DNA of 64,000 nucleotides from a virus. Position numbers and translations under genes: made by a program. Every line of letters begins with the position of its first letter. The first letter of the stretch is position 1. Shown piece after piece: positions 5,659 through 62,016 of the stretch. The notes under the pieces were generated by a model. The model searched no databases. It had not been told where the DNA came from and saw nothing but the letters and a program-made list of their open reading frames with translations. The DNA is taken from IMG/VR virus record IMGVR_UViG_3300021963_000035, positions 84,576 to 148,575 of that record; one strand, written 5' to 3'.

Positions 5659-6040
5659 AATTCCTACTCATTACTAATATAGTTTCAATTTTACTTCTGA
5701 TTAAAGAATTATTTAAGGTTGTTTTTAATCCCGTGTGTAGATTTTTAGGTAAATCGTCTAAGTCAGCCCAACATATAGTATTAATTTTAGTAGTCAAAAA
5801 TTCACAGTCTACTAAGCAGATGTAAGTACTGTATTCGAACCCTCGATCTTCACTCAAATAAAGTTCGATTGGTATTATCCTACCTTCGCTGCCCTTAAAG
5901 CTAACTATCAATTCTTTTGCATCATCAAGTAAATTTGATTGATGTTCAAATGTAGGAACAGTCCACTTTAGATTTTCGTGGATTAGCAGTATTCTTTGGG
6001 TTTGACTAGAAAGAAAAAGTATACCTGCACGTTTTTGCAT
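5648..6040 (-). CDS. Nudix-fold-like hypothetical protein (Nudix box degenerate)
   Basis: RAGILF...ILLI...W and W...LP..LH.GL pattern; TAAGTA-N5-ATG start. Confidence 0.45.
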   Translation of the reverse strand: MQKRAGILFLSSQTQRILLIHENLKWTVPTFEHQSNLLDDAKELIVSFKGSEGRIIPIELYLSEDRGFEYSTYICLVDCEFLTTKINTICWADLDDLPKNLHTGLKTTLNNSLIRSKIETILVMSRNYVD

Positions 6041-6051
6041 GTAGATACTTA

Positions 6052-7497
6052 TTAAGGATTCATAACAAAGCGCCAGTATCCGGCAGTGTATTCGCCTTCA
6101 AAACTCTTAAGCCACTGTTCCCCGTCCCACTTATACTGTATTCCAGTTGTAAGATTTTGAACATAAACCGGAGGAGTTAAATTATTACCTTGACTATTAA
6201 AGATTATAGTCCAGGAACTGCCATTCCATTCGATAATATCATTAGCGTTCGCACGTAGATTACCCCAGGCATATACTCCTGGCAACAAACTTTCGCCAGC
6301 GCCTGTCGGGACTCCATCTTGATCACTATCATAAAATCCTACTGAGGGATTAATATCTTCTAAGATTAAAAATCTCGTACCCACAGCCGATCCTCTCGGA
6401 TTAAATTTAATAGGATCGATAATAGCATCGATTGTAGTTCTTCCTGAAATAATAGTGTTAGATGGTTTATCTTCTATGGTCACAAGTAGATAGGTACTGT
6501 CAACTTCATTGATAACAAACGTTCCTCTTAATTCGTTACCGTTAGGTTGTAGGAAGAAGATCTGGCTAATTCCTGGTTGATAGGCTTCGTGTTGATCTAG
6601 GATTAGATGCCAATCTAGCCTATCTCCCATGCGTTGAGGAACATCTAATCCTAAATTCTTAACTGCTTCGTGAGCATCTAATAAACTCAAATCATAATCA
6701 TTAGATTGTCCATTGTTGCTTTTGAGTAACAATACACCAAAATTACTAGGTGTGGTGATAACTTTAGAGTTAGGGTTACCGTTATACACAAGATTGTTAA
6801 TGTTAATAACATCTCCATCCTCACTGAAGATATTCATTATAACACTCTTTACAACACCTAATTGTTTTACTTTTGCAGGGGGAGTGATGTATATAGGCAT
6901 AGAACAATCTATAGAGCAAATATCAATATCGTTTTCTGTACCTTGAGGAATAGTTCTGCTTGAAAAAATTATGCTGTTTAGATCAACAACACTAAGGCTA
7001 GTCCAATCTATGTAGTTGTCTGTGGTTTGTATTTCTAAACTAGGATTAAACAACACTAACATTTGTTCTAACAACTGTAATTTTTGATCAGTATTCGAAG
7101 TCCAAATATCTGCCTTCATTGATAGTTTGTAAGGAGTTGGCATTAATCGTTCAATGGTATAGTTTGCTCCTTGAGAATTTCCGTAAATAGGATCTCCATT
7201 ATTATCGAAACTATCATACTGCCTTTCTCGCAAATTCATCTTACTGACAAAACTAGCATCTGCTAGTCTTGACGTATCGAGTTCTAAATTACTGATGTAG
7301 CAGCTTATTCTCGGCACCGATGGCATCTTATTTTCTGAATTATCTTTGATTATCGACGCAACTGATCTAGATAAATCCCCGTACATTACAGGAACGTGGC
7401 GCAGCTCTCCATCGCCGGATTTATATTTGAAACCGATGAAAATACGCATAAACTGTGTTACGTATCTTCTTATTTGCCCGTCGTAAAAGAAATCCAT
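6052..7497 (-). CDS. Tail sheath stabiliser / tail terminator (T4 gp15-like) with C-terminal extension
   Basis: FFYD..IRRY..QF, VPVMYG, P.PY.L, QLLEQ.L..FNP motifs of gp15-like proteins. Confidence 0.75.
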   Translation of the reverse strand: MDFFYDGQIRRYVTQFMRIFIGFKYKSGDGELRHVPVMYGDLSRSVASIIKDNSENKMPSVPRISCYISNLELDTSRLADASFVSKMNLRERQYDSFDNNGDPIYGNSQGANYTIERLMPTPYKLSMKADIWTSNTDQKLQLLEQMLVLFNPSLEIQTTDNYIDWTSLSVVDLNSIIFSSRTIPQGTENDIDICSIDCSMPIYITPPAKVKQLGVVKSVIMNIFSEDGDVININNLVYNGNPNSKVITTPSNFGVLLLKSNNGQSNDYDLSLLDAHEAVKNLGLDVPQRMGDRLDWHLILDQHEAYQPGISQIFFLQPNGNELRGTFVINEVDSTYLLVTIEDKPSNTIISGRTTIDAIIDPIKFNPRGSAVGTRFLILEDINPSVGFYDSDQDGVPTGAGESLLPGVYAWGNLRANANDIIEWNGSSWTIIFNSQGNNLTPPVYVQNLTTGIQYKWDGEQWLKSFEGEYTAGYWRFVMNP

Positions 7498-8732: not shown

Positions 8733-9491
8733 ATGAGCCAAATTGATCAAGACAAACAAGCGGTCTACGACTATTGCAAAGCCATGCTGGGCGACGGCAT
8801 GATCGATATAGAATTGGACCCAATCCATTATGAAACAGCACTTAGTCGTGCTCTAGCGGTTTTCCGTCAACGCAGCGATAATGCTGTAGAGGAAAGCATG
8901 GTATTTCTTACAATGGAAACGGACAAAAACGAGTACATACTTCCAAAAGAAATACAGCAAGTAAGACAAGTTTTTCGAAGAAGCATAGGCAGCAGAAGCG
9001 GTGGTGGCGGTGGTGGCACTGTATTTGAGCCGTTTAATTTGGCATACACTAACACCTATCTTTTAAGCTCTACTAACATGGGCGGACTTGCAACATATGA
9101 TCTATTTGCCCAGTATCAAGAACAAGTAGGTCGAATGTTTGGTTCTTTTATTAATTTTCACTGGATCCCTCAAAGTAGAAAATTAGTCATCCAGCAGCGT
9201 CCTAGGAGTAATGAAGAAATAATGCTATGGGTGTATAACACCAGACCTGATAGTGCTATAATACAAGACACTTACTCCGGACAATGGATCAAAGATTATG
9301 CACTGGCTAACTGTAAAATGATGCTAGGGCAAGCTCGTGAAAAGTTTGGTCAGATCGCTGGCCCACAAGGCGGAACACAATTGAACGGTGCTAGTTTAAA
9401 ACAAGAAGCACAAGCTGACCTCGAACGGCTGACCTTAGAGTTGGTAAATCTAGTTCCTGGCGGTATTGGTTATACATTCATTATCGGTTAA
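8733..9491 (+). CDS. Neck protein (T4 gp13-like)
   Basis: LG...IDIEL, WIKDYALA..K..LG..R.KF, PQGG..LNG motifs. Confidence 0.8.
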   Translation: MSQIDQDKQAVYDYCKAMLGDGMIDIELDPIHYETALSRALAVFRQRSDNAVEESMVFLTMETDKNEYILPKEIQQVRQVFRRSIGSRSGGGGGGTVFEPFNLAYTNTYLLSSTNMGGLATYDLFAQYQEQVGRMFGSFINFHWIPQSRKLVIQQRPRSNEEIMLWVYNTRPDSAIIQDTYSGQWIKDYALANCKMMLGQAREKFGQIAGPQGGTQLNGASLKQEAQADLERLTLELVNLVPGGIGYTFIIG

Positions 9492-9549
9492 TTCAGGTTT
9501 GACCTAACACAAATTTTTCTAGTATACTTACACTATCACTGGAGAATTT

Positions 9550-10245
9550 ATGATCATAGGTATTTGCGGATTTATTGGCAGCGGCAAAGACACAGTTGCC
9601 GACTATCTGGTTAACTTCCACGGATTTCGTAGAGAAAGCTTCGCTAACACATTAAAAGACGCGGTTGCAGCCGTTTTTGGTTGGGACCGCGTTCTCTTAG
9701 AAGGACGTACAAAAGAAGCTCGAGAGTGGCGAGAGCAAAAAGATGAATGGTGGAGCAATCGACTAGGCCGTGATATAACTCCTCGTTGGGTGTTACAATA
9801 CTGGGGCACCGAAGTGTGCCGCAGAGGATTCCACGACGATATTTGGATTGCTAGTTTAGAGAATAAACTACGTAATAGCAAAGACGATGTGGTAATTTCA
9901 GACTGCCGCTTTCCTAATGAAATTTCTGCTATCAAAAAAGCCAACGGAAAAGTAGTGCGAGTTATTCGAGGTGCAGAACCCGAGTGGTATCAGGATGCAG
10001 TTAATGTAAATGCTGGTCCTACTGGTAACATGGCCTGGGCATTGAGCAAAGACAAGCTTAATAAATTAGGCATTCACGCTAGCGAAACATCCTGGGTAGG
10101 AACTAAATTTGATCACATGCTAGACAATAATTCTACGATTGACGATCTGTTTAGGCAGGTTAGAAATCTGGTACAAGATCCCCTTGACGCCAGTGAATCC
10201 CCTCTTTATGTAACAGTCTCTGACAGTTTGCACATACAGTCTTAA
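9550..10245 (+). CDS. Deoxynucleoside monophosphate kinase (T4 gp1-like)
   Basis: GICGFIGSGKDT P-loop, PR..LQ.WGTE, ISDCRFPNE, HASE. Confidence 0.88.
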   Translation: MIIGICGFIGSGKDTVADYLVNFHGFRRESFANTLKDAVAAVFGWDRVLLEGRTKEAREWREQKDEWWSNRLGRDITPRWVLQYWGTEVCRRGFHDDIWIASLENKLRNSKDDVVISDCRFPNEISAIKKANGKVVRVIRGAEPEWYQDAVNVNAGPTGNMAWALSKDKLNKLGIHASETSWVGTKFDHMLDNNSTIDDLFRQVRNLVQDPLDASESPLYVTVSDSLHIQS

Positions 10246-10492
10246 GATTACTATAACGACAGTTGTTAAGATCCCCGTCCACATGAAATACCGCAAATAC
10301 TTCAGGATGGGGACTCTTAAACCCGCACTTATCACACTGGGTTTTTTTCTTATATCCAGCCCGCATCCATCTAGGTGTTGATACTTCTCCTTTATAAAGG
10401 CACTTTTCACAGAGCCTTCTATAAAAGGTCTTTCCATTTTTTCTATAATTAACGGCTGCTGGTCGCATACCGCACTTACAAAGCGGTCTCAT
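10160..10492 (-). CDS. Zn-binding HNH endonuclease-like protein
   Basis: CxxC pairs; HVDGDLNN...NL..VCANC; TAAATA-N5-ATG start. Confidence 0.7.
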   Translation of the reverse strand: MRPLCKCGMRPAAVNYRKNGKTFYRRLCEKCLYKGEVSTPRWMRAGYKKKTQCDKCGFKSPHPEVFAVFHVDGDLNNCRYSNLKTVCANCQRLLHKEGIHWRQGDLVPDF

Positions 10493-10598
10493 GCAAATAT
10501 TTACACCTTTTTGGCCCCTTTTAATCTAGTTCAAACAATGCATTTTTTCAAAATGCCGCTAAATATTATGAGTAGATTAATACCGGGAGATTTATCAG

Positions 10599-13991: not shown

Positions 13992-14645
13992 ATGGCAATT
14001 ACCTCATTAAACAAATATACAGTACCTTTAGCTAGTAACCAGTCTAGCACCACACAAGGTCTGTTAATGCCAAAACTAAAGTATCGCTTTAGAGTGATAC
14101 TACAAGGTTTTGGTGCTAATGGTTCAATTTCAACAGAATTGACCAAGCAGGTATCAGATGTAACAAGACCAAAAGTGTCTTTTGAAGAGATCGAAGTTCC
14201 TGTGTACAACAGCAAGGTATTCCTTGCAGGTAAGTACACCTGGGAACAAATGACTCTAACACTACGCGATGATGCTAGCGGAAACGTGCAGCGTTTAGTC
14301 GGTGAACAGATTCAGAAACAATTCGATTTCATGGAGCAAGCATCAGCACGTTCTGGTATTGACTATAAGTTCACTACTAAGATTGAAGTACTAGACGGCG
14401 GCAACGGTGCTAATCAACCAAGCATTTTAGAAACTTATGAGTGCTACGGTTGTTTCATTCAAAATGCAGACTACGGCGACTTGAACTACGGTACTAATGA
14501 ACCAGCTACAGTGGCTCTAACAATCCGCTTTGATAATGCTATCCAATACAAAGGTGGCTCAATTGATGGAATTGGTCGTTCTATTGGTGCAAGAGTTGCT
14601 GCTGCCGCAGGCGGTACCGGTGGTGGTGCTGCAACAGTCGGTTAA
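13992..14645 (+). CDS. Tail tube protein (T4 gp19-like)
   Basis: Directly after sheath; PK..YRFRV, AGK.TW, .T.RFDNA. Confidence 0.88.
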   Translation: MAITSLNKYTVPLASNQSSTTQGLLMPKLKYRFRVILQGFGANGSISTELTKQVSDVTRPKVSFEEIEVPVYNSKVFLAGKYTWEQMTLTLRDDASGNVQRLVGEQIQKQFDFMEQASARSGIDYKFTTKIEVLDGGNGANQPSILETYECYGCFIQNADYGDLNYGTNEPATVALTIRFDNAIQYKGGSIDGIGRSIGARVAAAAGGTGGGAATVG

Positions 14646-49614: not shown

Positions 49615-49912
49615 ACTAAACCGAGTCCGGGTGGGGGGTATATTGATAAAAGTCTTGCCCAAATGGGGGTACAGGGGTAAAAAAATTAGGGCGCAAAAAA
49701 ATTAAGGTTTAACTACTTTTTCATCATGGTGGTGATTCTGCTACCCCTTGTTGCGTTTTTACAACACTACACACATTACGCCCCCCACCCCCCTCCACCA
49801 TGCCTCACCCTCCCACCCCATCCTTCAGAAAAATCCCAGAATTCCTGAAATTACCTAAAAAACCTAATCTAGCCCTCAGGGGGGTAGGATAACCCTGATC
49901 CCCCCAGGGTCT
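49615..49912. other. Non-coding strand-switch region with G-runs then C-runs (candidate genome end or origin)
   Basis: No ORF; convergent transcription; homopolymer tracts. Confidence 0.45.
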
Positions 49913-49947
49913 TTCGGTGGTGAGAAAGGCGACAGCACAGGGGCTGT

Positions 49948-49982
49948 AAAAAAACACAGTGTTGCAGTAGCGCAACACTGTG
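49948..49982 (-). terminator. Intrinsic terminator built without GG/CC
   Basis: CACAGTGTTGC-N6-GCAACACTGTG followed by T7 on minus strand. Confidence 0.75.
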
Positions 49983-50006
49983 CAAAAATGCAGTGTTGTT
50001 AAAACA

Positions 50007-50588
50007 CTACACAGCAGTAATAGTTACAATGTTGTTAAGCGCAATAGTGCGGCAAATAGCATTGTGTGTAATGTTGTGTGTAACATTGTGCGTTTGTGTG
50101 TTGCGATTAAACAACTGTTGTGCTTGCGCAGGCGTTAAGTATTGTGCAACGTCTTGCTTAGTTGCAAGTGTGTTGTTAATAAAATACATTGTGCTAGTTT
50201 GTGCGTTGTTAAAAAGCGCATACAAGTATTGTGCTAGCGTTTGCTTGTGTTGCACTACGCTATAGCAGTTAGTATGCTCAAAATAGTTTTCCTGCGCTGT
50301 AAACGCTTGCACATTGTTAGCGTTGTTAGTGGGGATAGCACTAGCAGTTTGTTTAACTAGCGTTGTGTATTGTGCGTTACTGTTAGCGTATAGCGTTACT
50401 GTTGCTTGTGTAACTTTTTTAATAGTAACGTCTTTGCATTTTGCGCTTGTTTTTACATTTGTAACATATGTAATTTGTGCGTTTTGCTGTTGTGCGTTGT
50501 TTAACACATTTGCTACGCATAGCGCAGTGATGTGTTGCTGTTGTGCGTGTTGTTGCAGTGCTGTTTGTGCTGTGTGTAGTGTTAGCAT
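50007..50588 (-). CDS. Early protein of extreme composition (Q/T/N/A/H-rich; no G/W, only 2 D, 2 E, 2 P)
   Basis: Own promoter (TTGCAC..TGCTATACT), AAGGA RBS, terminator. Confidence 0.75.
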   Translation of the reverse strand: MLTLHTAQTALQQHAQQQHITALCVANVLNNAQQQNAQITYVTNVKTSAKCKDVTIKKVTQATVTLYANSNAQYTTLVKQTASAIPTNNANNVQAFTAQENYFEHTNCYSVVQHKQTLAQYLYALFNNAQTSTMYFINNTLATKQDVAQYLTPAQAQQLFNRNTQTHNVTHNITHNAICRTIALNNIVTITAV

Positions 50589-50971
50589 TTTGCTAGTCCT
50601 TTTTTTTGTTGCTACACAATGTTGTGTAGTGCAGTTAGTATAGCACCGTTTTGGCTGTGTGCAACAAATAATTTAATAACATATTTTCTCAAGGGTCTTT
50701 CTCGGATACGCCTACCCCGACGCAGCAGCTGAACATGTGTCCACGGGGTTAGGTGCTGTCCCGGCGCATGCAGCTCACATGTGCTGTCGGGGTTGCATGC
50801 CTTTTGTCCCTGTGCAGTGATGTTGTGCAGCAGGATCGCCCTGGGGCATGCGTCGTGCTGGCGTCCATCGAGGATCCTTGCGGGGAGGATAAAAAAAGCC
50901 CGCCGGGTCTATTCACCGGACGGGCCAAAGGGGGAGGAGTAAGCCCCCGAGCACACTACGCAAAAATCAAA

Positions 50972-51157
50972 TCATCTGCTGTCCAGCCATTCATCGTGGC
51001 GGATCATGACGGTCCCCACCCAGGCTATCAGAAGACCGCCTAGCGATATCAGCACGGCTCCTAGTAGCATTGTGTCGTTGAGGCTGTTCTCTACGCCCCC
51101 GACCCCGAACATGGTTACGATTAATCCTACGATGAAAACAAACATACCTCGCTTCAT
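50972..51157 (-). CDS. Small two-TM membrane protein
   Basis: Coupled to upstream gene; hydrophobic. Confidence 0.65.
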   Translation of the reverse strand: MKRGMFVFIVGLIVTMFGVGGVENSLNDTMLLGAVLISLGGLLIAWVGTVMIRHDEWLDSR

Positions 51158-51402
51158 ACCGCCTCCACTGCTTGAGTAAAATAATCTGTGTTGAGATAGT
51201 CGTAGACTTCCAGGAGGCTGTCATCGTCTAACTCTCGGATACGCTGCTTGATGGTTTCCAGGTCCCAGCCATCCTCATCGAGATTGATAACCCCGAGGTC
51301 GAAGTCGAGGGCATACTGGAGAGCATCCTCGTTAGCATCGTCCCAGTAGAGCTCTAGGATCTCTACCACGGTGTCCTGTATCCTGGTCTTGATGTCGCTC
51401 AT
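51154..51402 (-). CDS. Highly acidic early protein
   Basis: AGGAG RBS; GGTTGACA..TAAACT promoter. Confidence 0.75.
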   Translation of the reverse strand: MSDIKTRIQDTVVEILELYWDDANEDALQYALDFDLGVINLDEDGWDLETIKQRIRELDDDSLLEVYDYLNTDYFTQAVEAV

Positions 51403-51539
51403 CTTGTGCTCCTTTAATTAAACAGTATCTAGAGTTTAACAGATTTTTGGATCCTGTCAACCAAAATAGGCCGCTGTGTAGCGGGGTCTATGGTGGTGTT
51501 GCACTAGCGCAACAGTGTGCGCTAGTGCTGTGTTACAGT

Positions 51540-51872
51540 TTAAGTAAACAAACGCAATACAATGCTGTTTTGTGTTACTACAATTTGCGCATTGTGTTTT
51601 TTAGCAATTTGCGTTAATGCTAAACAAACGCTTGTTGTGTTGTAAATTGTAACAGTTGCAAAGCGTTTACGAAAATTAGTAAAAATACGCTTTGTAAAAT
51701 ATTGTGCTTGCGCTGCTAATGCTAATGCGCTTAACTGTGCGTGTTGCTGTGCAGTATACAAATTTGCATACTGCGCATTTTGCTGTTTAGCGTGTAGTAT
51801 AGTGCGCAATTTACTGCGTGTGTTTTGTGTGTGCTTTGTGTGCTGCACTTGCACTTGTGTTTGTGTTTGCAT
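51540..51872 (-). CDS. Basic early protein with no D, E, G, P or W
   Basis: Extended -10 TGTTATAGT upstream; downstream hairpin; 110-aa open frame. Confidence 0.65.
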   Translation of the reverse strand: MQTQTQVQVQHTKHTQNTRSKLRTILHAKQQNAQYANLYTAQQHAQLSALALAAQAQYFTKRIFTNFRKRFATVTIYNTTSVCLALTQIAKKHNAQIVVTQNSIVLRLFT

Positions 51873-51976
51873 AGTGTGTGCTGTTTAAGTTGCTGCATAA
51901 AATTATGCAGTAACTACACTATAACACAAATTTAAAAAACTTTAGCGTTTTTAGAAACTTATTTTCCGTAGGGTCT

Positions 51977-52180
51977 TTATTGCCACAACTGCTGCTGCCG
52001 CTGCCAGCATGAGGGATTGCTCTGGGGTGTGCCCTTGCAGTTGAGATTCCTGGATTGACGAGGGGGGACCTGTTCAAACAGTGCGTGGCCAGGCTCCGGA
52101 TCCATGTGGAACCTCTGAGGGGCGCAGCCGGCAAGGATCCCGACGAGGACCCCGATGGTGACCATGGATGAAATCTTCAT
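51977..52180 (-). CDS. Putative lipoprotein
   Basis: Signal peptide with LAGC lipobox. Confidence 0.65.
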   Translation of the reverse strand: MKISSMVTIGVLVGILAGCAPQRFHMDPEPGHALFEQVPPRQSRNLNCKGTPQSNPSCWQRQQQLWQ

Positions 52181-52401
52181 GAAGGTGTGTGGGGTTGGTT
52201 GATGACCGCCAGGCCACGTGCCCTGGCATCCGCTTTAAGATATCTCATTAGTGCTCTCTGGATTCTCTCTTCGACGAAAGCCGCTTCCGCTGCTGTGAGC
52301 TCGGTCTCGGGAAGTTCGTCGTTAAGGACTTTAAGGACCACAGCCTGGCGATCAGCTGCCAGTCCCTGTGGTGTGAAGGTACACTTGCGCCATGTAGTCA
52401 T
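52177..52401 (-). CDS. Hypothetical protein
   Basis: Coupled ORF. Confidence 0.6.
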   Translation of the reverse strand: MTTWRKCTFTPQGLAADRQAVVLKVLNDELPETELTAAEAAFVEERIQRALMRYLKADARARGLAVINQPHTPS

Positions 52402-52748
52402 GTTTTCATATACTCCGCGCCCAACTCCTGTGGAATCGTCACGTTGGTTCCGGTGGGGAATTTCTGTGCTATCAGCTGGATCAGTTGCTTGGGATCATTG
52501 TGTTGCCCCAGGAAGCGATCACTAGGATGTTCGTAGGCGTAAAGGGTGTCACCGTGCCGCTCGATCTTGACCGTGGCCTGTGCTTCAGGTTCGTCTTGTG
52601 ATTCGATGGCTGCTCTCAGCTTCTGCTCTAATTCCCGGGGATCGATTCCCGCGGCACGCAGCGCGGACTTCATCATAGATCTAATGACGATACCGTGTAC
52701 GGCCCAACCTAACCAGAATGCGAAAGCGAAAAGGATGATCAGTTCCAT
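52398..52748 (-). CDS. Membrane-anchored hypothetical protein
   Basis: TAAATA-N5-ATG; N-terminal TM; LYAY....FL.Q. Confidence 0.7.
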   Translation of the reverse strand: MELIILFAFAFWLGWAVHGIVIRSMMKSALRAAGIDPRELEQKLRAAIESQDEPEAQATVKIERHGDTLYAYEHPSDRFLGQHNDPKQLIQLIAQKFPTGTNVTIPQELGAEYMKT

Positions 52749-52849
52749 AATTGTATTTACTCCAGGTTGCTGCTGCCTTGCATGTAGCGGGGTCTATGTT
52801 CATAGTATAGCACACGACCTGCTCACCTGCAAGTCGTGTGCTGTTGTGT

Positions 52850-53170
52850 TTAAGCCACAGCGTATTGCCGCAATGCTTGCTCAACTGCTATTACTGCTAG
52901 TTTGCTTCGGCCGCCAACGTGCCAGTCTGTAATGTGCTGTTTAGCAAGCCCTGCTTCGCCGCAGTAATTTTTGCCATCTTTGTAATTGTAGATAGTTGCA
53001 ACAACGCCGTTGCTAAATTGCAACTCCCATTCTGCGTCCGTCTTGTAAGCGTCCCCCTCGCTGTGCTCTGGGCCAAACACGTCTACAAGTGTTGCGTAAT
53101 CTACATTAACATAACCCTGCAAGCTAGTGCCGTTTACTGCTTGCCATTTTGCTTGTTTAAAAGTTAGCAT
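52850..53170 (-). CDS. Early hypothetical protein
   Basis: AGGAGCG RBS; TTGACA..TATTAT promoter; L...FG.P, ATIY.YK, WHVGG motif. Confidence 0.8.
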   Translation of the reverse strand: MLTFKQAKWQAVNGTSLQGYVNVDYATLVDVFGPEHSEGDAYKTDAEWELQFSNGVVATIYNYKDGKNYCGEAGLAKQHITDWHVGGRSKLAVIAVEQALRQYAVA

Positions 53171-53235
53171 TTTGCGCTCCTGTTGTTCACTGCGTTATTG
53201 CAGTGTGTTTATAATAGCACCTGTTGTCCAAAATG

Positions 53236-53382
53236 TCAACCACGTAGACCCTGTAGATAACTCTCACGCAGGAGTCGACGCTGTTCTTTGTAGCGTAGCT
53301 GTCTGGCCAAAAAGCCCGGAGATTCAAACCAATCTTGTAGGCAATGACGGGTTTGTCGGCGACGCCTTGCTCTCATCTTCAT
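53236..53382 (-). CDS. 48-aa Arg-rich peptide (not in ORF track)
   Basis: AGGAGCGAAC RBS before ATG; MKMRARRRRQ... Confidence 0.55.
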   Translation of the reverse strand: MKMRARRRRQTRHCLQDWFESPGFLARQLRYKEQRRLLRESYLQGLRG

Positions 53383-53413
53383 GTTCGCTCCTTGTCTTTA
53401 ACTGTCAACCAAA

Positions 53414-53626
53414 TTAATATGCAGCTTCGTCTGGTGCACCCCAGGCGCACTCACGTTCCTGAGCGCGGATCATCTCCCACTGATCACGGATCACAAGCTT
53501 GGCCGCAGCCACGTCCCCGTTGCATTCTTCGAGGATGTCGTTATAATCTGCTGCGTCCCAGCACTCTACGATCCAATGACCGCCTGCTTCGTAGTTGTCC
53601 AGGGCATACTGATAAAGTTCGTTCAT
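53414..53626 (-). CDS. Acidic early hypothetical protein
   Basis: AGGAGCG RBS before MNELYQ; promoter upstream. Confidence 0.7.
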   Translation of the reverse strand: MNELYQYALDNYEAGGHWIVECWDAADYNDILEECNGDVAAAKLVIRDQWEMIRAQERECAWGAPDEAAY

Positions 53627-53682
53627 TTTGCGCTCCTTGTTGTGGAGTTCATATAATAACACATTTTGGGCTCAGTGCAACC

Positions 53683-53767
53683 AAAAAAAAAGGATAACCC
53701 TACGTGCTGTAAGGTTATCCTTGGAACTGCTACAGCTTCCCGGGAGCGAATCGGTTTAGGCCATAGC
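53683..53767 (-). ncRNA. Candidate 3'-UTR anti-Shine-Dalgarno hairpin plus terminator (copy 1)
   Basis: CCGATTCGCTCCCGGG identical to copy 2; outer stem GCUAUGGC/GCUGUAGC. Confidence 0.5.
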
Positions 53768-54049
53768 TGCTTCTTTGGCTGCTGCCTTAGAAGTCTTTGC
53801 GGGAGCGTACTTGCTCTCAACGTGTTCAATCGCGGACTGAACAGCGGCATTTCCCTGACCGTAGCCGATGCTGCGGAGATGGGCCACGATTTCAGCCTTG
53901 GTCATCTCGTGTGGGAGATTGATCAGGTCCACATCGTTGTGGCCGTTCTTTGCCAGGATCTTGATTCGCATCTGATCGTTGGCGAAGCGCAGCTTGGTCT
54001 TGCCATTAAGGGTTGAAACGCCTGCTACTGAAAAACGCTTGTCTGTCAT
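53756..54049 (-). CDS. Hypothetical protein
   Basis: GAGG RBS; TTGACA promoter; VAGVS..NG..K.RFAND. Confidence 0.75.
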   Translation of the reverse strand: MTDKRFSVAGVSTLNGKTKLRFANDQMRIKILAKNGHNDVDLINLPHEMTKAEIVAHLRSIGYGQGNAAVQSAIEHVESKYAPAKTSKAAAKEAAMA

Positions 54050-54145
54050 TTGAGTTACCTCTCTGTGTGTTTAAAAAAAGCACCAAACCATTTGGTACGT
54101 TATTATGTTAACACCGGTTTGGTTTGGTGTCAACCGTTTTTTTGC

Positions 54146-54337
54146 CTAATTTGGCAAAACTTGTATCGTAACGCTTTGGGTCTCTCCCAATGCGTTCACG
54201 AAAGCATCATCGTATACTAGTTCCTTGAAAGTCAGATCCAGCATCTCTTCAACCATCGCGAGATCAGCAGATCCATCTGATGCGCATTCGATCGTTAAAC
54301 GGAATTCATATGTTCTCATCGTTGCCAGCTTTCCCAT
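54146..54337 (-). CDS. Hypothetical protein
   Basis: ORF in the minus-strand run. Confidence 0.55.
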   Translation of the reverse strand: MGKLATMRTYEFRLTIECASDGSADLAMVEEMLDLTFKELVYDDAFVNALGETQSVTIQVLPN

Positions 54338-54597
54338 TTAAGAAGATACAGTGCCAATGCTTCTTCAGCCAGATACACACTGCTCTTTTCACTGTCCCAT
54401 GCCCACTTAGGTTGGGTCCCATCGAAGAAGTCAGGACGAGCAAATGCCAGCTCAGCACTGGGTCCAAACTGCATCCACAGCCAGTTACGGCTCTGGATCC
54501 ATTGATTCACCCTCTCGTCTCTACCGTAGAATTCTACCCTATGGCTGAATCTGCCATAGCCATCATATCTCCGGTCTAATTTAATAAGTTTCATCAT
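54316..54597 (-). CDS. Hypothetical protein (small family ending ..LKW)
   Basis: W.W.QFGPS.EL motif; start at MMKLIKL. Confidence 0.6.
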   Translation of the reverse strand: MMKLIKLDRRYDGYGRFSHRVEFYGRDERVNQWIQSRNWLWMQFGPSAELAFARPDFFDGTQPKWAWDSEKSSVYLAEEALALYLLKWESWQR

Positions 54598-54622
54598 ACA
54601 TGCACATGCGTAGTAGCGGGGT

Positions 54623-55282
54623 CTATGAGTTGACTGTGTTATGAGGATCGTATTCCCCAATCAGCCCTACAGACTTACGCTGTTCCGCACCTTCCTTAAC
54701 GAATGCATAGAGTTCTTCCTCCATGCGTTGCTCTTCTTCATACTCAGCGAGATACTCACTGATACCAAACATCTCGTCCAGCTCTTCTGGAAGGATATCA
54801 CGAGCCTCTTCACTGGTCTGCCATTCGGTCCAGCAGTTGTCCTCACCATCCTCATAGACTCCAGCGAAACACATGCCGGGCTCGTAATACATAGCGCGGA
54901 TCTTGTAGCCTTGCTCTTCCATGATGGGATAGATGTTCAAAGGCGGCGACCAGGCAGTATCAAAGTTCAGAACGATATTGTTCTCATCGATACGGCTGTC
55001 TCCTCCACGCTCGCCACAGTCCCACTTGGTTCCCCAGTTGCTGGTCTGCCAGTCATACCAATCCTTAGCGCCAAAATACTTGAGATTCAGTTGCTGTTTG
55101 AACTGATTCAGTTCCTCAGCATAACTGTCTCCCAGATAACCGGCCACGGTCTCGTGCAGTTCCTTAGGGCAAGGTTTGATGTAATCCAACATCCGCCCTT
55201 GTCTGAATGCACGACGTAGACCCGCGATCTTGCGAGGATCTTCGTGGCTGACTTCCAAATGATTGTTGCACCAATTAGGCAT
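54623..55282 (-). CDS. DUF1281/YubB ferredoxin-like family protein
   Basis: MPNWCNN, WYDW...NWGTKW, FDTAWSPP, YYEPGM.F.G. Confidence 0.8.
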   Translation of the reverse strand: MPNWCNNHLEVSHEDPRKIAGLRRAFRQGRMLDYIKPCPKELHETVAGYLGDSYAEELNQFKQQLNLKYFGAKDWYDWQTSNWGTKWDCGERGGDSRIDENNIVLNFDTAWSPPLNIYPIMEEQGYKIRAMYYEPGMCFAGVYEDGEDNCWTEWQTSEEARDILPEELDEMFGISEYLAEYEEEQRMEEELYAFVKEGAEQRKSVGLIGEYDPHNTVNS

Positions 55283-55543: not shown

Positions 55544-55971
55544 ACGGGGAGATCTCCCTTGTTGATTCGCCGCAGCAGACAGGTAAGAGTAAAGTCTCGA
55601 TTGACCATGAACTTCTTAGGCCAGTCACGGATCTCCCAATCATCCAAGTTCATGGTCTGGTGACGCTTGACTTTGCCACGAGGACCAACAACCTGGATTT
55701 CCCAAAGTTTGCTGTTTCGGCCAATGCCACCCATCTTGGCCGTCACGACATTGTTCTGATGTTTCACAGTGTAGGTCTTGGTCTTGGGATCGTAGGAATG
55801 TTCATAAGCCATCAACTGATCACTGATGGCCTTCTGTGCATTGCGGATCTGTTGATTGCGTAATCGATTGCCAATGCTGGTCAGATCGTTGTGTGTGAGG
55901 CCGTAGAGTCCTGCCATCATCAGGATCTTCTCTTTGGCTTCCTTCTTGGCCTGTTTCTCTTGCAAGTCCAT
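55540..55971 (-). CDS. Hypothetical protein
   Basis: AAGGAA RBS; promoter upstream. Confidence 0.7.
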   Translation of the reverse strand: MDLQEKQAKKEAKEKILMMAGLYGLTHNDLTSIGNRLRNQQIRNAQKAISDQLMAYEHSYDPKTKTYTVKHQNNVVTAKMGGIGRNSKLWEIQVVGPRGKVKRHQTMNLDDWEIRDWPKKFMVNRDFTLTCLLRRINKGDLPV

Positions 55972-56019
55972 GTCTGTTCCTTTGTGCTAATAATAACAGG
56001 GCCCTAAGGCCCTGTCAAC

Positions 56020-56388
56020 TCAATCAACTACATGCACTTCCTTAAAGCTCTCGTAGCCGTATTTCTTTTCCCACGCGGCAATAAAGTCCCCGTCTACGTC
56101 TAAGCTAACGTAGTTGTCTCCCTGCATGCCCTGCTCGCTGTAGTCTGCTTCCGCAAGGCCCTGTTCTGCGAGGAATGCGTTAAGCTCTACTAAAAAGTTG
56201 CTGTCTGTGTAAATTAGTCCGTCTTCGTTAACGTCCCAATCGTCTGTGTTAAAATACACGCACAGCTCGCCAAAGTCTTTGTCGTCTACAACATAGCCCA
56301 AGTCTATGCCTGTAATACGCACTGCCTTAGACACTTTGCTCCAGTAGCCGTCGCCAGCAGTGTTAAAAGTTGCTCTCACTGTTTGCAT
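56020..56388 (-). CDS. Acidic early protein lacking Pro
   Basis: AGGAGCGAA RBS; own promoter. Confidence 0.8.
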   Translation of the reverse strand: MQTVRATFNTAGDGYWSKVSKAVRITGIDLGYVVDDKDFGELCVYFNTDDWDVNEDGLIYTDSNFLVELNAFLAEQGLAEADYSEQGMQGDNYVSLDVDGDFIAAWEKKYGYESFKEVHVVD

Positions 56389-56455
56389 TGTTTCGCTCCT
56401 GTGTGTTAATGTTCAAATAGTATAACAGGGCCCTAAGGCCCTGTCTACCAAAATA

Positions 56456-56818
56456 TTAAATACCCTGGAACTTTGAAAGGACTTCTTGTGCGCTTTCATC
56501 TAGCATAACTGCGTCCATAGCCTTGCGCTTCTCAATGTCAAGCTCTGCGCGGTATGCTTCCATAGCCAGCTTCTTTGCTTCCATTGCGGGCCAAACTACA
56601 TCTTGCGGGTTGAGGTAAGGACCTGTATAATCTTCCTTTTCCTCTTTAAGTGTGATCTCGCCTGCTTTAATTGCTGCGAACACTTGTCCCCAGGTAGGCT
56701 GTTGAGGACGACCGCTAGGACCAAAAAGTTCTACAGCCTTAGACTGTAGTTTATCTGCAACGATCTCCTCCAAACGGCGGATGAAGTAAGAACGTTGTTC
56801 TGTGGACATTGCTTGCAT
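56456..56818 (-). CDS. Hypothetical protein
   Basis: AGGAGCG RBS; promoter. Confidence 0.75.
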   Translation of the reverse strand: MQAMSTEQRSYFIRRLEEIVADKLQSKAVELFGPSGRPQQPTWGQVFAAIKAGEITLKEEKEDYTGPYLNPQDVVWPAMEAKKLAMEAYRAELDIEKRKAMDAVMLDESAQEVLSKFQGI

Positions 56819-59054: not shown

Positions 59055-59596
59055 TTGTGTCCAATCTTCATATAACGGGTAAATCCCCATGTAGGGTATT
59101 TAAACGATTTCTCGCCCGTATATAAAGATTGTGACATAGGCCAACAGTTGCTGAACTCGTCTATGCTAGTGTAGCAGTGTACGTGATCATCATGGGGCAT
59201 GTCATTGCCCTGTAGCGCGATCAGTGTCCCGTTGGGAATGCGATCGTACCACTCGCGGGAATCAATGTGTTCCACGCTGGTGTTGATGATTAGATCAGGA
59301 GCAGTAGTCCAGGTCAGCTGATTAACATCTGCGGTTACTGCTGTAAACTCACCCTGCCAGTGCCACAGACGGTTCACGTGTATGGCCGTGCTTTCGCAGC
59401 TAGGATCTATGTCGTAGCTGGTAACATGTTGTATGGGTAGAGTGTTCTGTGTGCGCAACAGCAGGTTGGTAGTACAATACCAGCCCGCAAGTACATGTAT
59501 GCGTAAGGGTTGCAGCGGGGTCAATACCTGTGCTAGTGTCTCCCCGAGCCAGAGCTTGGATCCTATCTGGCCTGAGGAGAAACTATCCCAATTCAC
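59051..59596 (-). CDS. SAM-dependent methyltransferase-like protein
   Basis: VLAGWY, SYDIDP, DLIINTS.EH motifs. Confidence 0.65.
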   Translation of the reverse strand: MNWDSFSSGQIGSKLWLGETLAQVLTPLQPLRIHVLAGWYCTTNLLLRTQNTLPIQHVTSYDIDPSCESTAIHVNRLWHWQGEFTAVTADVNQLTWTTAPDLIINTSVEHIDSREWYDRIPNGTLIALQGNDMPHDDHVHCYTSIDEFSNCWPMSQSLYTGEKSFKYPTWGFTRYMKIGHK

Positions 59597-60825
59597 CCTT
59601 CTAGATTCTCGTAGATAACAGTCTGTCCAAAGGGTGCTTCTGCAGAAGTATTGCCCTTGACGATGAACAGGGTTTCACAGTATTCTTCGTCACCCCAACC
59701 ACCGCAGGGATAACCATCTGTGAACATAATGAACTTCTTCGGACGGAGATCACGCTCTTTCATGTATTCCCAATTGACTTCGAAGTCTGTGCCGCCGCCA
59801 CCTTGAGGTTCATAGCTCAACAATGCGTCACCGTCGTCGTGCGTGAAGCGTTGTGGGTTATAGATGTCTGTGTCAAAGCACCAGATGTCAATAGCGTAGT
59901 CCTGATACTGATCCATGATGCCTTTAACCTCTGACAGGAATGCAGTTGCATCCTCAGTGCCAATTGAACCTGACATATCAATGCCGATGGCCACGTCAAT
60001 GGTCTCATCGTTCTTCATTCCAGGAAGGATAGCGCCACTGTGCCAGCTCTTGCGATTAGGACGGGTGAATGCGTAGTCATTACGCACGATGCTCTGGATG
60101 TTCATCTGCAGAACATCACGCCAGTTCATCTTAGGTTCAGTCAAGTCCTTGAGCAGACGTTGCACACCTGCGGGCACCTTGCCAGCACCTGCGGCCGCGG
60201 CACTCTGGATCATTGCTTCTTTGATCTCGTCACGCAGTTTCTCTGCTTCTTCCTTGGTTAGTGTAGGCTTTGAACTTACACCCTGGCCACTCTTGCCTTG
60301 TTTATCGCCGCCTGCACCAGGACCCTCTTCTTCGTTGATATGTTCATCAAGCAGGTCGCCCAGTTGCTTGAGCAGTTGGCTCATAGGAATCTTCTCAGCC
60401 TGCTCCCAGAGCTTGTCGTAGATCTCTTCCCAGGCCATGCCACGATACTTATTGTCCTGGCAGATCTTGACTTCAGTAATACGCTCGCCGATGCGATCAT
60501 CTACGAGGATCTGATTCACAGCGTAGTCCTGCGCGATGTTGCTGAGCTGACGATCACGGCTACCAACACGGCCAAAGTGATCAAAGACACAATGCAGGAT
60601 CTCGTGTGCGAACAAGAACTCCAGCTTCTTGGTGTTGAGCTTCTTGACAAACTCAGTGTTGTAAAAGAAATTACGCCCGTCAGTTGCGGCAGTAGGGCAC
60701 CAGTCGTCTGCACAACGGATCTGCATACGGGTGGCCATGTTGCCAAAGAAGGGAGCCTTGAGTAGCAGTCCTACACGGGCTGTGATTAACTTTTCTTCGA
60801 TTGCTTTGTCTACGGTAACGGGCAT
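59593..60825 (-). CDS. Metallopeptidase-like (HExxH) plus vWA domain protein (DUF2201-type)
   Basis: TAATDG, HEILH; DMSGS MIDAS, GGGT.F, FTDG. Confidence 0.85.
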   Translation of the reverse strand: MPVTVDKAIEEKLITARVGLLLKAPFFGNMATRMQIRCADDWCPTAATDGRNFFYNTEFVKKLNTKKLEFLFAHEILHCVFDHFGRVGSRDRQLSNIAQDYAVNQILVDDRIGERITEVKICQDNKYRGMAWEEIYDKLWEQAEKIPMSQLLKQLGDLLDEHINEEEGPGAGGDKQGKSGQGVSSKPTLTKEEAEKLRDEIKEAMIQSAAAAGAGKVPAGVQRLLKDLTEPKMNWRDVLQMNIQSIVRNDYAFTRPNRKSWHSGAILPGMKNDETIDVAIGIDMSGSIGTEDATAFLSEVKGIMDQYQDYAIDIWCFDTDIYNPQRFTHDDGDALLSYEPQGGGGTDFEVNWEYMKERDLRPKKFIMFTDGYPCGGWGDEEYCETLFIVKGNTSAEAPFGQTVIYENLEG

Positions 60826-60939: not shown

Positions 60940-62016
60940 TTAGTTCTCCATTGCGCTCAAAACATACTTGCCAAAACGCTTGTGGAACTCGTCAAAGTTC
61001 TTGAGCTTGGTGGCATCCAAGGGCAAGTTGTAATTGGTAAGGGCTGTCTTGGCACCCATAACCACCAACTCAGTTGGGAAGCAGTCCATCATGTAGCGGA
61101 AGAAGTTGTCTGCCTTGGCATCCCAGTCCTTGACCTTCTTGTCTGCCATGTCCTTGAGCTCATAGCAGAGGCTAACGGTCAAAGAATACATCGCCGACAC
61201 TTCTTTGATAGCCAAGTCCTTGACCTTGCCTTCGAGGATGTCGATGGCCTTGGGCAATTTGCCTGCGATCTTGCGGTGTGCCATAAACTTGTGTGCAAGT
61301 CCATCACCCACAGCGCCTGCGATCAGATCAGTCAGCGTGGCTTCGTCAGTGTCATCGTCCTGTAGCAGATCGCTTACGAACGACCAGGAGCGAGGCGTAG
61401 CGAATGCGTGGCTGGCGCTCTTAGGATCAAAGTCATACAAGTCCTGCTTGGCGAAACCAACATAACCAACGACCTGCTCGTGGATACGATTCAGGGTGGC
61501 CCAGTCTTGCCAGTCGTCGAAGTCCACTTTGGCTTCCAAGTGCAGGAATCGATTAGCCAATGGCTTAGGCATACGATAAGTCACGCCACGGTCACCATCG
61601 CGGTTACCAGCGGCAACGATATCTACACCCTTAGGTAGCACATAAGTGCCAACACGACGGTTCAGCACCAACTGGTATGCCGCGGCTTGGACTGCGGGTG
61701 GAGCAGAGTTCAGCTCATCCAGGAAGATGATCGCACGGCTGTCTGGATCCTGCGGCAGTTCTGCGGGAGGAGCCCACACCATGGTCTTGGTGTCTGCGTT
61801 GTAATAAGGGATACCCTTGATGTCGGTGGGTTCCCAAAGGGGTAGTCGAACATCGATCACTTCACGACCGGTGTCATCACCGATCTGCTTGACGATATCA
61901 CTTTTGCCAATGCCTGGAGGGCCCCACAGGAACACAGGACGGCGCTTTTGGATGGCCTTCAGGATAGCCTTCTTGGCTTTCTTAGGACCTACGGTACGGA
62001 TTGATTTGTCGCTCAT
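60940..62016 (-). CDS. MoxR-like AAA+ ATPase
   Basis: GPPGIGKS, IIFLDELN, AAGN, LANRF, TPRSW. Confidence 0.9.
   Translation of the reverse strand: MSDKSIRTVGPKKAKKAILKAIQKRRPVFLWGPPGIGKSDIVKQIGDDTGREVIDVRLPLWEPTDIKGIPYYNADTKTMVWAPPAELPQDPDSRAIIFLDELNSAPPAVQAAAYQLVLNRRVGTYVLPKGVDIVAAGNRDGDRGVTYRMPKPLANRFLHLEAKVDFDDWQDWATLNRIHEQVVGYVGFAKQDLYDFDPKSASHAFATPRSWSFVSDLLQDDDTDEATLTDLIAGAVGDGLAHKFMAHRKIAGKLPKAIDILEGKVKDLAIKEVSAMYSLTVSLCYELKDMADKKVKDWDAKADNFFRYMMDCFPTELVVMGAKTALTNYNLPLDATKLKNFDEFHKRFGKYVLSAMEN

Follow-up and report, generated by a model that had tools for sequence, protein, structure and literature searches.

Selection has rewritten an early-gene cassette of an uncultured giant phage until the whole transcribed unit, read on either DNA strand, is almost free of the step 5'-GR-3' (GA and GG). 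For this recoding the gene has paid with its Asp, Glu, Gly, Pro and Trp residues and with a normal Shine-Dalgarno site. The cassette encodes a protein of 193 amino acids (ORF193). It lies in the window, by which we mean the whole 64,000-nucleotide stretch that was analysed, the last 64 kb of a linear IMG/VR contig of 148,575 bp with an estimated completeness of 42%. The source phage is related to the Pseudomonas jumbo phage PA5oct, its nearest cultured relative, with which it shares a large terminase at 54% identity. Searches of cultured phages with megablast and tblastn found no ORF193 homologue.

A cassette recoded from promoter to terminator

The ORF193 unit is a genuine early-gene cassette, made up of a sigma-70-type promoter, a 5' hairpin, a CDS and an intrinsic terminator. 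Its elements, and the neighbouring features referred to below, are as follows.

49944-50686, no strand assigned: GR/YC-depleted island, one whole early cassette, about 17 GA/GG/TC/CC in 743 bp
50659-50664, minus strand: putative -35 element TTGCAC, no GA (consensus TTGACA)
50637-50642, minus strand: -10 element TATACT, as read from the sequence, with a 16-nt spacer that holds one CC and one GG
50612-50629, minus strand: leader 5' stem-loop CTACACAACATTGTGTAG; similar 5' hairpins occur in the cassettes of related loci L012 and L014
50597-50601, minus strand: minimal ribosome-binding site AAGGA (by sequence), among the few GG/GA kept
50007-50588, minus strand: CDS, 193 aa, phage-only family, predicted alpha/beta fold with a small beta-barrel (AlphaFold model from a 46-sequence alignment, pLDDT 96.2, pTM 0.89)
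49948-49983, minus strand: intrinsic terminator, a 13-bp stem without GG/CC/GA/TC (hairpin 49954-49983), then a T-run
50693-50700, minus strand: AAAGACCC motif immediately upstream of the cassette (GGGTCTTT on the plus strand), from the motif copies
49907-49914, minus strand: AAAGACCC motif immediately downstream of the cassette, with CACCACC before the motif, from the motif copies
51496-51953, minus strand: second full island, with a 110-aa gene (ORF110, 51540-51872) of an unrelated family, from the depletion scan
52766-53304, minus strand: half island, gene 52850-53170, mRNA strand without TC/CC only (plus strand GA 2, GG 3 versus TC 22, CC 28)
55937-56467, minus strand: half island, acidic 122-aa gene 56020-56388, mRNA strand without TC/CC, from dinucleotide counts

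The earlier note had counted 5 GG, 3 GA, 4 TC and 1 CC in the CDS by eye, and this tally is exact. It amounts to 13 of the 581 dinucleotides, where 113.5 would be expected from the base composition of the CDS itself (the by-eye estimate had been about 100). Across the window these four steps make up a fraction of 0.197 per position. On the mRNA strand of the CDS there are 8 YC steps (TC or CC) against 68.5 expected. The island keeps its G and C in another context: every G has C or T after it, every C has A or G before it, the GC dinucleotide is enriched 2.5-fold and G+C stays at 40%. All three codon phases are depleted, codon junctions included, so this is a rule about nucleotides and not about codons. 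Explanations at the level of tRNAs or codons were set aside, since the codon junctions and the non-coding parts follow the rule too.

The bounds of the island are sharp. Dense GR/YC clusters flank it on both sides from the first base outside, and its edge lies 4 nt past the T-run of the terminator. When the whole 148,575-bp contig is scanned in 200-nt windows, only this island, which sits 13 kb from the contig end, and the one at 51496-51953 fall below 0.05 GR/YC; the first percentile is 0.105. The earlier note took the location as a hint that this may be first-injected DNA. The AAAGACCC motif occurs in seven copies, all in one orientation, between 49907 and 54626.

The promoter, AAGGA site and GG/CC-free terminator that had been claimed for this gene were all located, with the promoter as the inferred part: TTGCAC-16-TATACT (50664-50637) is a candidate that is absent from the output of the consensus promoter scan. 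The TTGCAx type of -35 element also heads full islands in five related loci (L003, L007, L009, L012 and L014) and the tRNA promoters of PA5oct. Most of the other full-island genes that were inspected have no ribosome site containing GG or GA. Among the early genes nearby, the majority have the consensus promoter TTGACA and contain GR at normal levels, so the rule is gene-specific and not common to all early genes. Recoding that runs from promoter through terminator, with the protein included, implies an agent in the infected cell that reads or marks exactly these steps, which relatives use freely.

Normal and depleted members of the ORF193 family

ORF193 is a real gene under selection. When the island was resampled 1000 times with Markov models of first or second order, no reading frame of this length arose (p about 0.001). 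Long shadow ORFs lie on the opposite strand. Relatives were sought exhaustively and without a profile, which gave 151 at E<=1e-3 and, among these, 108 at E<=1e-10, nearly all of 150-240 aa, and the family is restricted to phages, where it forms about 150 clusters. The protein had been described as free of Gly and Trp, with two each of Asp, Glu and Pro, and rich in Asn, Gln, His, Thr and Ala; the computed counts match (no G or W; two each of D, E, P and R; T 30, A 26, Q 25, N 24 and H 8).

A good illustration of what was changed is the homologue in locus L002 (IMGVR_UViG_3300002307_000092, positions 5998-6540), which is 46% identical to ORF193 (E 5e-49). Its GR/YC fraction of 0.155 is normal, as are its contents of D, E, G, K and R. 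In the L002 cassette (about 5900-6600) the promoter is TTGACA-17-TATACT, the ribosome site GGAGAGA and the terminator is built on CCC/GGGG, whereas the cassette in the window has TTGCAC-16-TATACT, AAGGA and a 13-bp hairpin without GR/YC, so that every element has been rewritten. Among 133 full-length representatives of the family, the summed content of D, E, G, P and W is normal (>=0.14) in 79 and almost nil (<=0.04) in 15. The substitutions in depleted members are D to N, E to Q, T or A, G to N, K or S, P to A, and W to Y, S or H. The earlier note had asked whether homologues carry D, E or G where this protein has N, Q or A, and they do: relatives have D, E, G, P and W where ORF193 has N, Q, T, A, K, S and Y.

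Many of these replacements require transversions, and together with the retained G+C this points to selection and not to a footprint of deamination. A mutational origin through a deaminase was accordingly rejected, since the contents of G and C are maintained. On a quick, noisy family tree, with 17 depleted members, the depleted state was gained or reverted about 12 times. The depleted members are scattered over this tree; compositional attraction would, if anything, have clustered them.

It is scarcely credible that no selection acted on the step, and that we are looking at a mutational footprint, an assembly artefact, non-coding DNA of low complexity or DNA acquired from a donor with an odd composition. 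The sequence does look low in complexity, and the shadow ORFs opposite the gene are long. That said, G and C are kept and merely re-contexted, the family is conserved and confidently folded, and the depleted state arose or reverted repeatedly, as far as the noisy tree can be read. A donor genome wholly without D, E, G, P and W could not exist. Independent assemblies also show the same rule. An assembly artefact, which had been named as one outcome that would overturn the claim, is unlikely, since the depleted homologue P0001 was assembled on five contigs; the four of these that were examined come from four different samples, and their GR/YC is 0-0.2%.

Searches of Pfam and PHROG gave no match for ORF193 or its normal-composition homologues, and no usable one for about 18 neighbouring proteins. 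Foldseek, run with the ORF193 model against the PDB, returned nothing at E<=0.001, and BFVD and the ESM Atlas, searched by features and by shape, gave only uncharacterised phage proteins. A structure-only comparison with VIA-align gave Z scores of 5-6 to WYL/Sm-like small barrels over 60-76 residues, a range typical of common arrangements; the small-barrel matches are PafBC, BrxR, DriD, Hfq and YaeO. The best-conserved residues of the family (A49, K58, Y74, V78, F96, H105, Y121, L122, T152, S154, N168, H175 and R180) are all 13 kept in ORF193, and none of them needs a forbidden codon. ORF193 is a small basic protein that probably binds a ligand or a nucleic acid, with a function that tolerates recoding.

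The suggestion that the few retained acidic residues may be functional holds in part. E99 and E103 (in QENYFEH) align with the commonest acidic columns of the family; fully depleted homologues replace both (AQANYFTH in P0001), so these residues are preferred but not essential. The lack of similarity to the 51540 gene was borne out, with a pairwise E of 0.29. The earlier note had further proposed one rule shared by non-homologous genes, and indeed several related phages carry the two families together, each in depleted form. In L002 a depleted homologue of the 110-aa gene adjoins the normal homologue of ORF193.

Full islands, half islands and two tiers of the rule

Islands are present in four of six related IMG/VR contigs (G000, G001, G003 and G005), always around the ORF193 gene cluster. 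Completeness is just 25-45% for the contigs that bear islands, and no island was found in G002 (62% complete) or G004 (94% complete). Full islands extend over as much as 2.9 kb and take in several unrelated small genes in related contigs (L012, L007, L015 and L003), and G001 carries one of 1.8 kb. PA5oct has no large island. It does have short GR/YC-free stretches (264.9-265.2 kb and 267.25-267.56 kb), at gp099 and in an unannotated stretch of 300 bp, the latter holding three tandem TTGCAA-17-TATAAT promoters upstream of a tRNA cluster. When contigs with and without islands were compared for their gene content, no candidate effector emerged. In the literature we found no published description of GR/YC-free islands.

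The rule has two tiers: YC on the mRNA strand is the primary and absolute one, and GR on the mRNA strand is the second. This hierarchy was counted over 476 crudely called ORFs from this contig and ten related loci, in which promoter calls are equally crude and the contigs are fragments. TC and CC alone are missing from the mRNA strand (which equals GA and GG missing from the template) in 18 of the 476, and both pairs are missing in 12. By contrast with these, the five apparent ORFs in which only mRNA-strand GA and GG are missing are all shadow ORFs or borderline full cases. Single-strand half islands thus outnumber full ones, and ORF193 belongs to the minority that obeys both tiers. In half-island genes, GA and GG are about two-fold down overall where their use is optional (codon phases 2-3 and 3-1), and hardly reduced there in the two half-island genes of the window.

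The two kinds of island also differ in where the rule starts. In half islands the 5'UTRs contain no YC where 31 would be expected, and the core promoters contain 13 where 28 would be expected, so the absolute rule begins at the transcription start. Full-island promoters are purged as well, with a -35 element that reads TTGCAx and not TTGACA; CC or GG in the spacer is tolerated in two first-in-cluster promoters, that of ORF193 included. Within the first 60 nt past the stop codon of full-island genes, terminator stems included, there are 6 YC against 80 expected and 1 GR against 72. The sense strands of full islands are 38% A, 23% C, 22% T and 17% G, and the antisense strands are equally free of YC.

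These observations bring in the main rival explanation, which is evasion of Rho. UC and CC are the dinucleotides of Rho primary sites, and an early transcript with poor ribosome cover that is stripped of them would escape premature termination. The 5'-YC specificity of the primary binding sites is established (PMC12360218), and composition-based avoidance of Rho shapes whole bacterial genomes and biases their coding strand towards purines (PMC13323073). Evasion of Rho would fit with mRNA-strand YC being the primary, commonest and absolute tier, and with a half-island rule that begins at the transcription start. The Shine-Dalgarno site is missing in most full-island genes, which would expose the RNA, and the ORF193 barrel resembles Sm-like folds that include the Rho inhibitor YaeO (Z 5.5), although this is a weak lead only.

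What Rho leaves unexplained is the loss of GA and GG from the mRNA, which is paid for in Asp, Glu, Gly, Trp and the Shine-Dalgarno site. For this, a second reader that is the exact reverse complement of the first would be needed, or some benefit from an antisense RNA to which Rho is blind. Full-island mRNAs have more C than G (23% versus 17%) and no purine bias. In full islands the purge is no less strict in terminator stems and 5' hairpins, where Rho should not care, than in the rest of the transcript, and the near-zero tolerance surpasses what is needed to blind a multi-site rut. For the full island we therefore regard evasion of Rho as possible but on the unlikely side.

The half islands also bear on avoidance of restriction sites or CRISPR PAMs on duplex DNA (GATC, GGCC, CCGG, TCGA, NGG, CC, TTC and others). 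Removing GA, GG, TC and CC from both strands would delete many known sites and PAMs of these kinds. Any cut kills the genome, yet merely 1.3 of the 148.6 kb are protected, and the bounds of the islands match transcription units. Furthermore, half islands are strand-specific relative to transcription, to which a reader of duplex sites is blind. We consider this explanation very improbable.

Candidate agents and related systems

For the full island, the agent that we favour is a DNA chemistry that targets guanine at 5'-GR, with a probability of about 0.35. In its simplest form this would be a GA/GG-specific guanine hypermodification of the lineage's own. With no GR on the template of half islands, and none on the two strands of full islands, these cassettes would then stay plain DNA when injected, and the unmodified host RNA polymerase could recognize the -35 box and read the plain cassette unhindered at time zero.

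Several phages offer a precedent for such chemistry. The DpdA enzymes of CAjan, which targets GA and GGC (PMC7544227), and of iggy, which targets GA (PMC10484667), insert 7-deazaguanines. DNA of PA5oct resists EcoRI, BmrI, XbaI and BsaI, which its authors read as modified G in GA and/or GG (PMC12191111); that reading is loose, since the ApaLI site contains no GA or GG. The banned step, a G with a purine after it, coincides with the motifs that these three papers give for the modification. A reader of GR on each DNA strand would explain the mirror symmetry, the template-first hierarchy, the GA-free -35 box and the tolerated spacer. In favour of the chemistry, the -35 hexamer of full islands avoids GA even though it is not transcribed, and the uncontacted spacer tolerates CC and GG. 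Among 4-bp palindromes in this contig, the four that contain GR are not avoided and the seven most avoided are all GR-free, and in the island-less G004 this pattern is reversed; the support is weak and post hoc.

Other results count against guanine chemistry. The palindrome signature is absent in G001, G003, G005 and PA5oct. We found no TGT/DpdA, QueC, C5-methylase, TET or deaminase in this contig or its relatives, with the TET result uninformative because its control matched nothing anywhere. DpdA/TGT, FolE, QueD, QueE and QueC are missing from this 42%-complete contig and from G001, G003 and G005, and searches for radical SAM and thymidylate-synthase-like proteins showed no association with the islands. 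FolE and QueD are confined to two genomes with weak islands or none, PA5oct and G002, and G001 lacks both at the spot syntenic with PA5oct despite its full island. With contigs of 25-45% completeness, the absence of these genes is no proof against the chemistry. Most early genes are GR-rich and have TTGACA; if they lie on modified DNA, then modified DNA must be transcribable. Finally, a reader at the RNA level would account equally well for the half-island rule, which sets in where transcription begins.

A further explanation is a self-immune counter-defence cassette, for which a host enzyme, or a shut-off enzyme of the phage itself, would cut, deaminate or ADP-ribosylate YC or GR steps exposed by transcription. 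In a variant, a modification-dependent nuclease cuts near modified GR, and genes needed during the attack are written without the target. END nucleases do sense hypermodified phage DNA, and PA5oct has an inhibitor of them (PMC12191111). Counter-defence would account for a rule that is gene-specific and not common to all early genes, and that clusters in a few small early genes, including those for acidic, DNA-mimic-like proteins. The near-zero tolerance fits one-hit inactivation, and the ordinary DNA between islands argues that expression is protected and not genome integrity.

Bacterial deaminases that prefer YC exist; no enzyme with a GR/YC dinucleotide specificity was found. DarT1 was considered as a GR-directed guanine ADP-ribosyltransferase and dropped, as it has no consensus motif. 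The lack of Pfam or PHROG matches for ORF193, its homologues and its neighbours means that none is identifiable as anti-defence, and an attacker of RNA alone would need two mirror-image specificities. Counter-defence is doubtful on this balance. We give a similarly low rating to its general form, in which GR/YC-free cassettes would be the "self-immune first-responder" genes of phages, untouchable by a GR-directed process on DNA or RNA and hence functional during that process. The countermeasures would be the proteins that they encode, namely those of the ORF193 and ORF110 families together with the acidic neighbours. The process could be the phage's own guanine hypermodification in combination with host nucleases able to sense it; alternatively, it could be a host enzyme acting on transcribed YC/GR. 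If this were true, the banned word would be a direct read-out of an enzyme's specificity.

The organization of these cassettes has a counterpart in T4-type phages, where promoter-early stem-loop (PeSL) cassettes were reportedly described by Arbiol, Comeau and Krisch in 2010. In both, every small early gene is bordered by a sigma-70 early promoter that is fused to a stem-loop, and the units are repeated. The units studied here also appear to be shuffled among related phages, as in PeSLs. PeSL-like joins are seen in L003, where a terminator stem holds the next -35 box, and in L002, where the promoter is repeated after the terminator. To our knowledge no dinucleotide ban has been described for PeSLs.

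Avoidance of short motifs is common among viruses, from restriction sites in phages to the depletion of CpG, UpA and TC in animal viruses. As in those cases, selection here removes a short word that some factor reads. Unlike them, it acts on one transcription unit and not on the genome, it involves two mirror-image dinucleotide pairs, and five amino acids are lost.

The phage 7-deazaguanine systems (CAjan, iggy and PA5oct) resemble the islands in that a G-then-purine step is read on each DNA strand, and PA5oct also has its short GR/YC-free promoter stretches. Unlike those systems, the island-bearing contigs have no detected DpdA, QueC, QueD or FolE. Islands of motif-free genes are not described in PMC7544227, PMC10484667 or PMC12191111. 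Avoidance of Rho (PMC13323073, PMC12360218) is similar in that UC and CC are kept off the mRNA from the transcription start, with effects on codon and amino-acid usage. However, the removal here is local and near-absolute, it includes GA and GG on the same strand, and the mRNA is C-rich and not purine-biased.

In summary, a conserved, well-folded protein and its whole cassette obey a two-letter DNA rule, which is an unusually clean footprint of a strong selective agent. Natural matched pairs of normal and recoded cassettes within one family make this agent directly testable. Any such agent would add a new axis to the conflict between phages and their hosts, be it a new enzyme with dinucleotide specificity, a guanine hypermodification that host polymerase cannot read, or Rho in the role of a barrier against phages. 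The signature would also help to locate the genes that a phage needs first.

Composition and neighbours of the early region

Across the final 18 kb of the contig (window 46000-64000) the G+C content climbs from 0.35-0.41 to 0.45-0.53. This is the early region, made up of small minus-strand genes, and all of the islands lie inside it, including two half islands, in which the mRNA strand is without TC and CC only. The features considered here are:

52766-53304, half island (mRNA strand without TC/CC only)
55937-56467, half island (mRNA strand without TC/CC only), encoding a 122-aa protein
59593-60825, minus strand, DUF2201 metallopeptidase/VWA protein, adjoining the next gene
60940-62016, minus strand, MoxR-like AAA ATPase

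The 122-aa protein is very acidic (D+E+G+W = 32%) and is devoid of Pro. It has a relative at 14146-14451 of the related locus L012, which is likewise encoded by a half island, and it could be a DNA-mimic-like early protein.

Repeated motifs and promoters

The motif GGGTCTWT, which reads A[AT]AGACCC along the strand of the genes, occurs seven times in window 49907-54626, always in one orientation, against 2.9 copies expected. Pairs of it bracket both full islands, the cassettes that are nearly free of GA/GG/TC/CC on both strands, and after the hairpins of both it is preceded by CACCACC. Three of the copies share the longer form ATAGACCCCGCTAC, and some lie within terminator stems or at a transcription start.

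In related loci from other contigs (L003 2056-2138 and L002 6540-6640), the stem-loop that terminates one early gene also contains the −35 box for the promoter that comes next, and a second copy of the promoter follows the terminator. We take this overlap and promoter repeat to be the promoter-early stem-loop (PeSL) architecture of T4-type phages.

Palindrome avoidance and a radical-SAM-like ORF

In the whole contig the most avoided 4-bp palindromes are CGCG (0.53) and CATG (0.63), and the four that contain GA or GG show no avoidance. In the island-less relative G004 the most avoided are GGCC (0.58) and 6-mers containing GA or GG (0.75). One further ORF of the contig lies outside the window:

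9153-10520 of the whole contig (G000:C1), radical-SAM-like ORF of 455 aa with a CxxxCxxC motif

Its match to Pfam Radical_SAM (22.6 bits) is under the cut-off, and a homologue is absent from the Pseudomonas jumbo phage PA5oct and from the five related contigs.

Depleted stretches in PA5oct

PA5oct (NC_071039.1), the nearest cultured relative, has an unannotated 300-bp stretch (267254-267557) that is nearly without GA/GG/TC/CC. It carries three tandem TTGCAA-17-TATAAT promoters with repeated leaders and is directly followed by the tRNA cluster. The annotated gene gp099 (264942-265154) has a single TC/CC dinucleotide, against 17.5 expected. PA5oct is thus a cultured phage in which the GA/GG/TC/CC rule could be tested.
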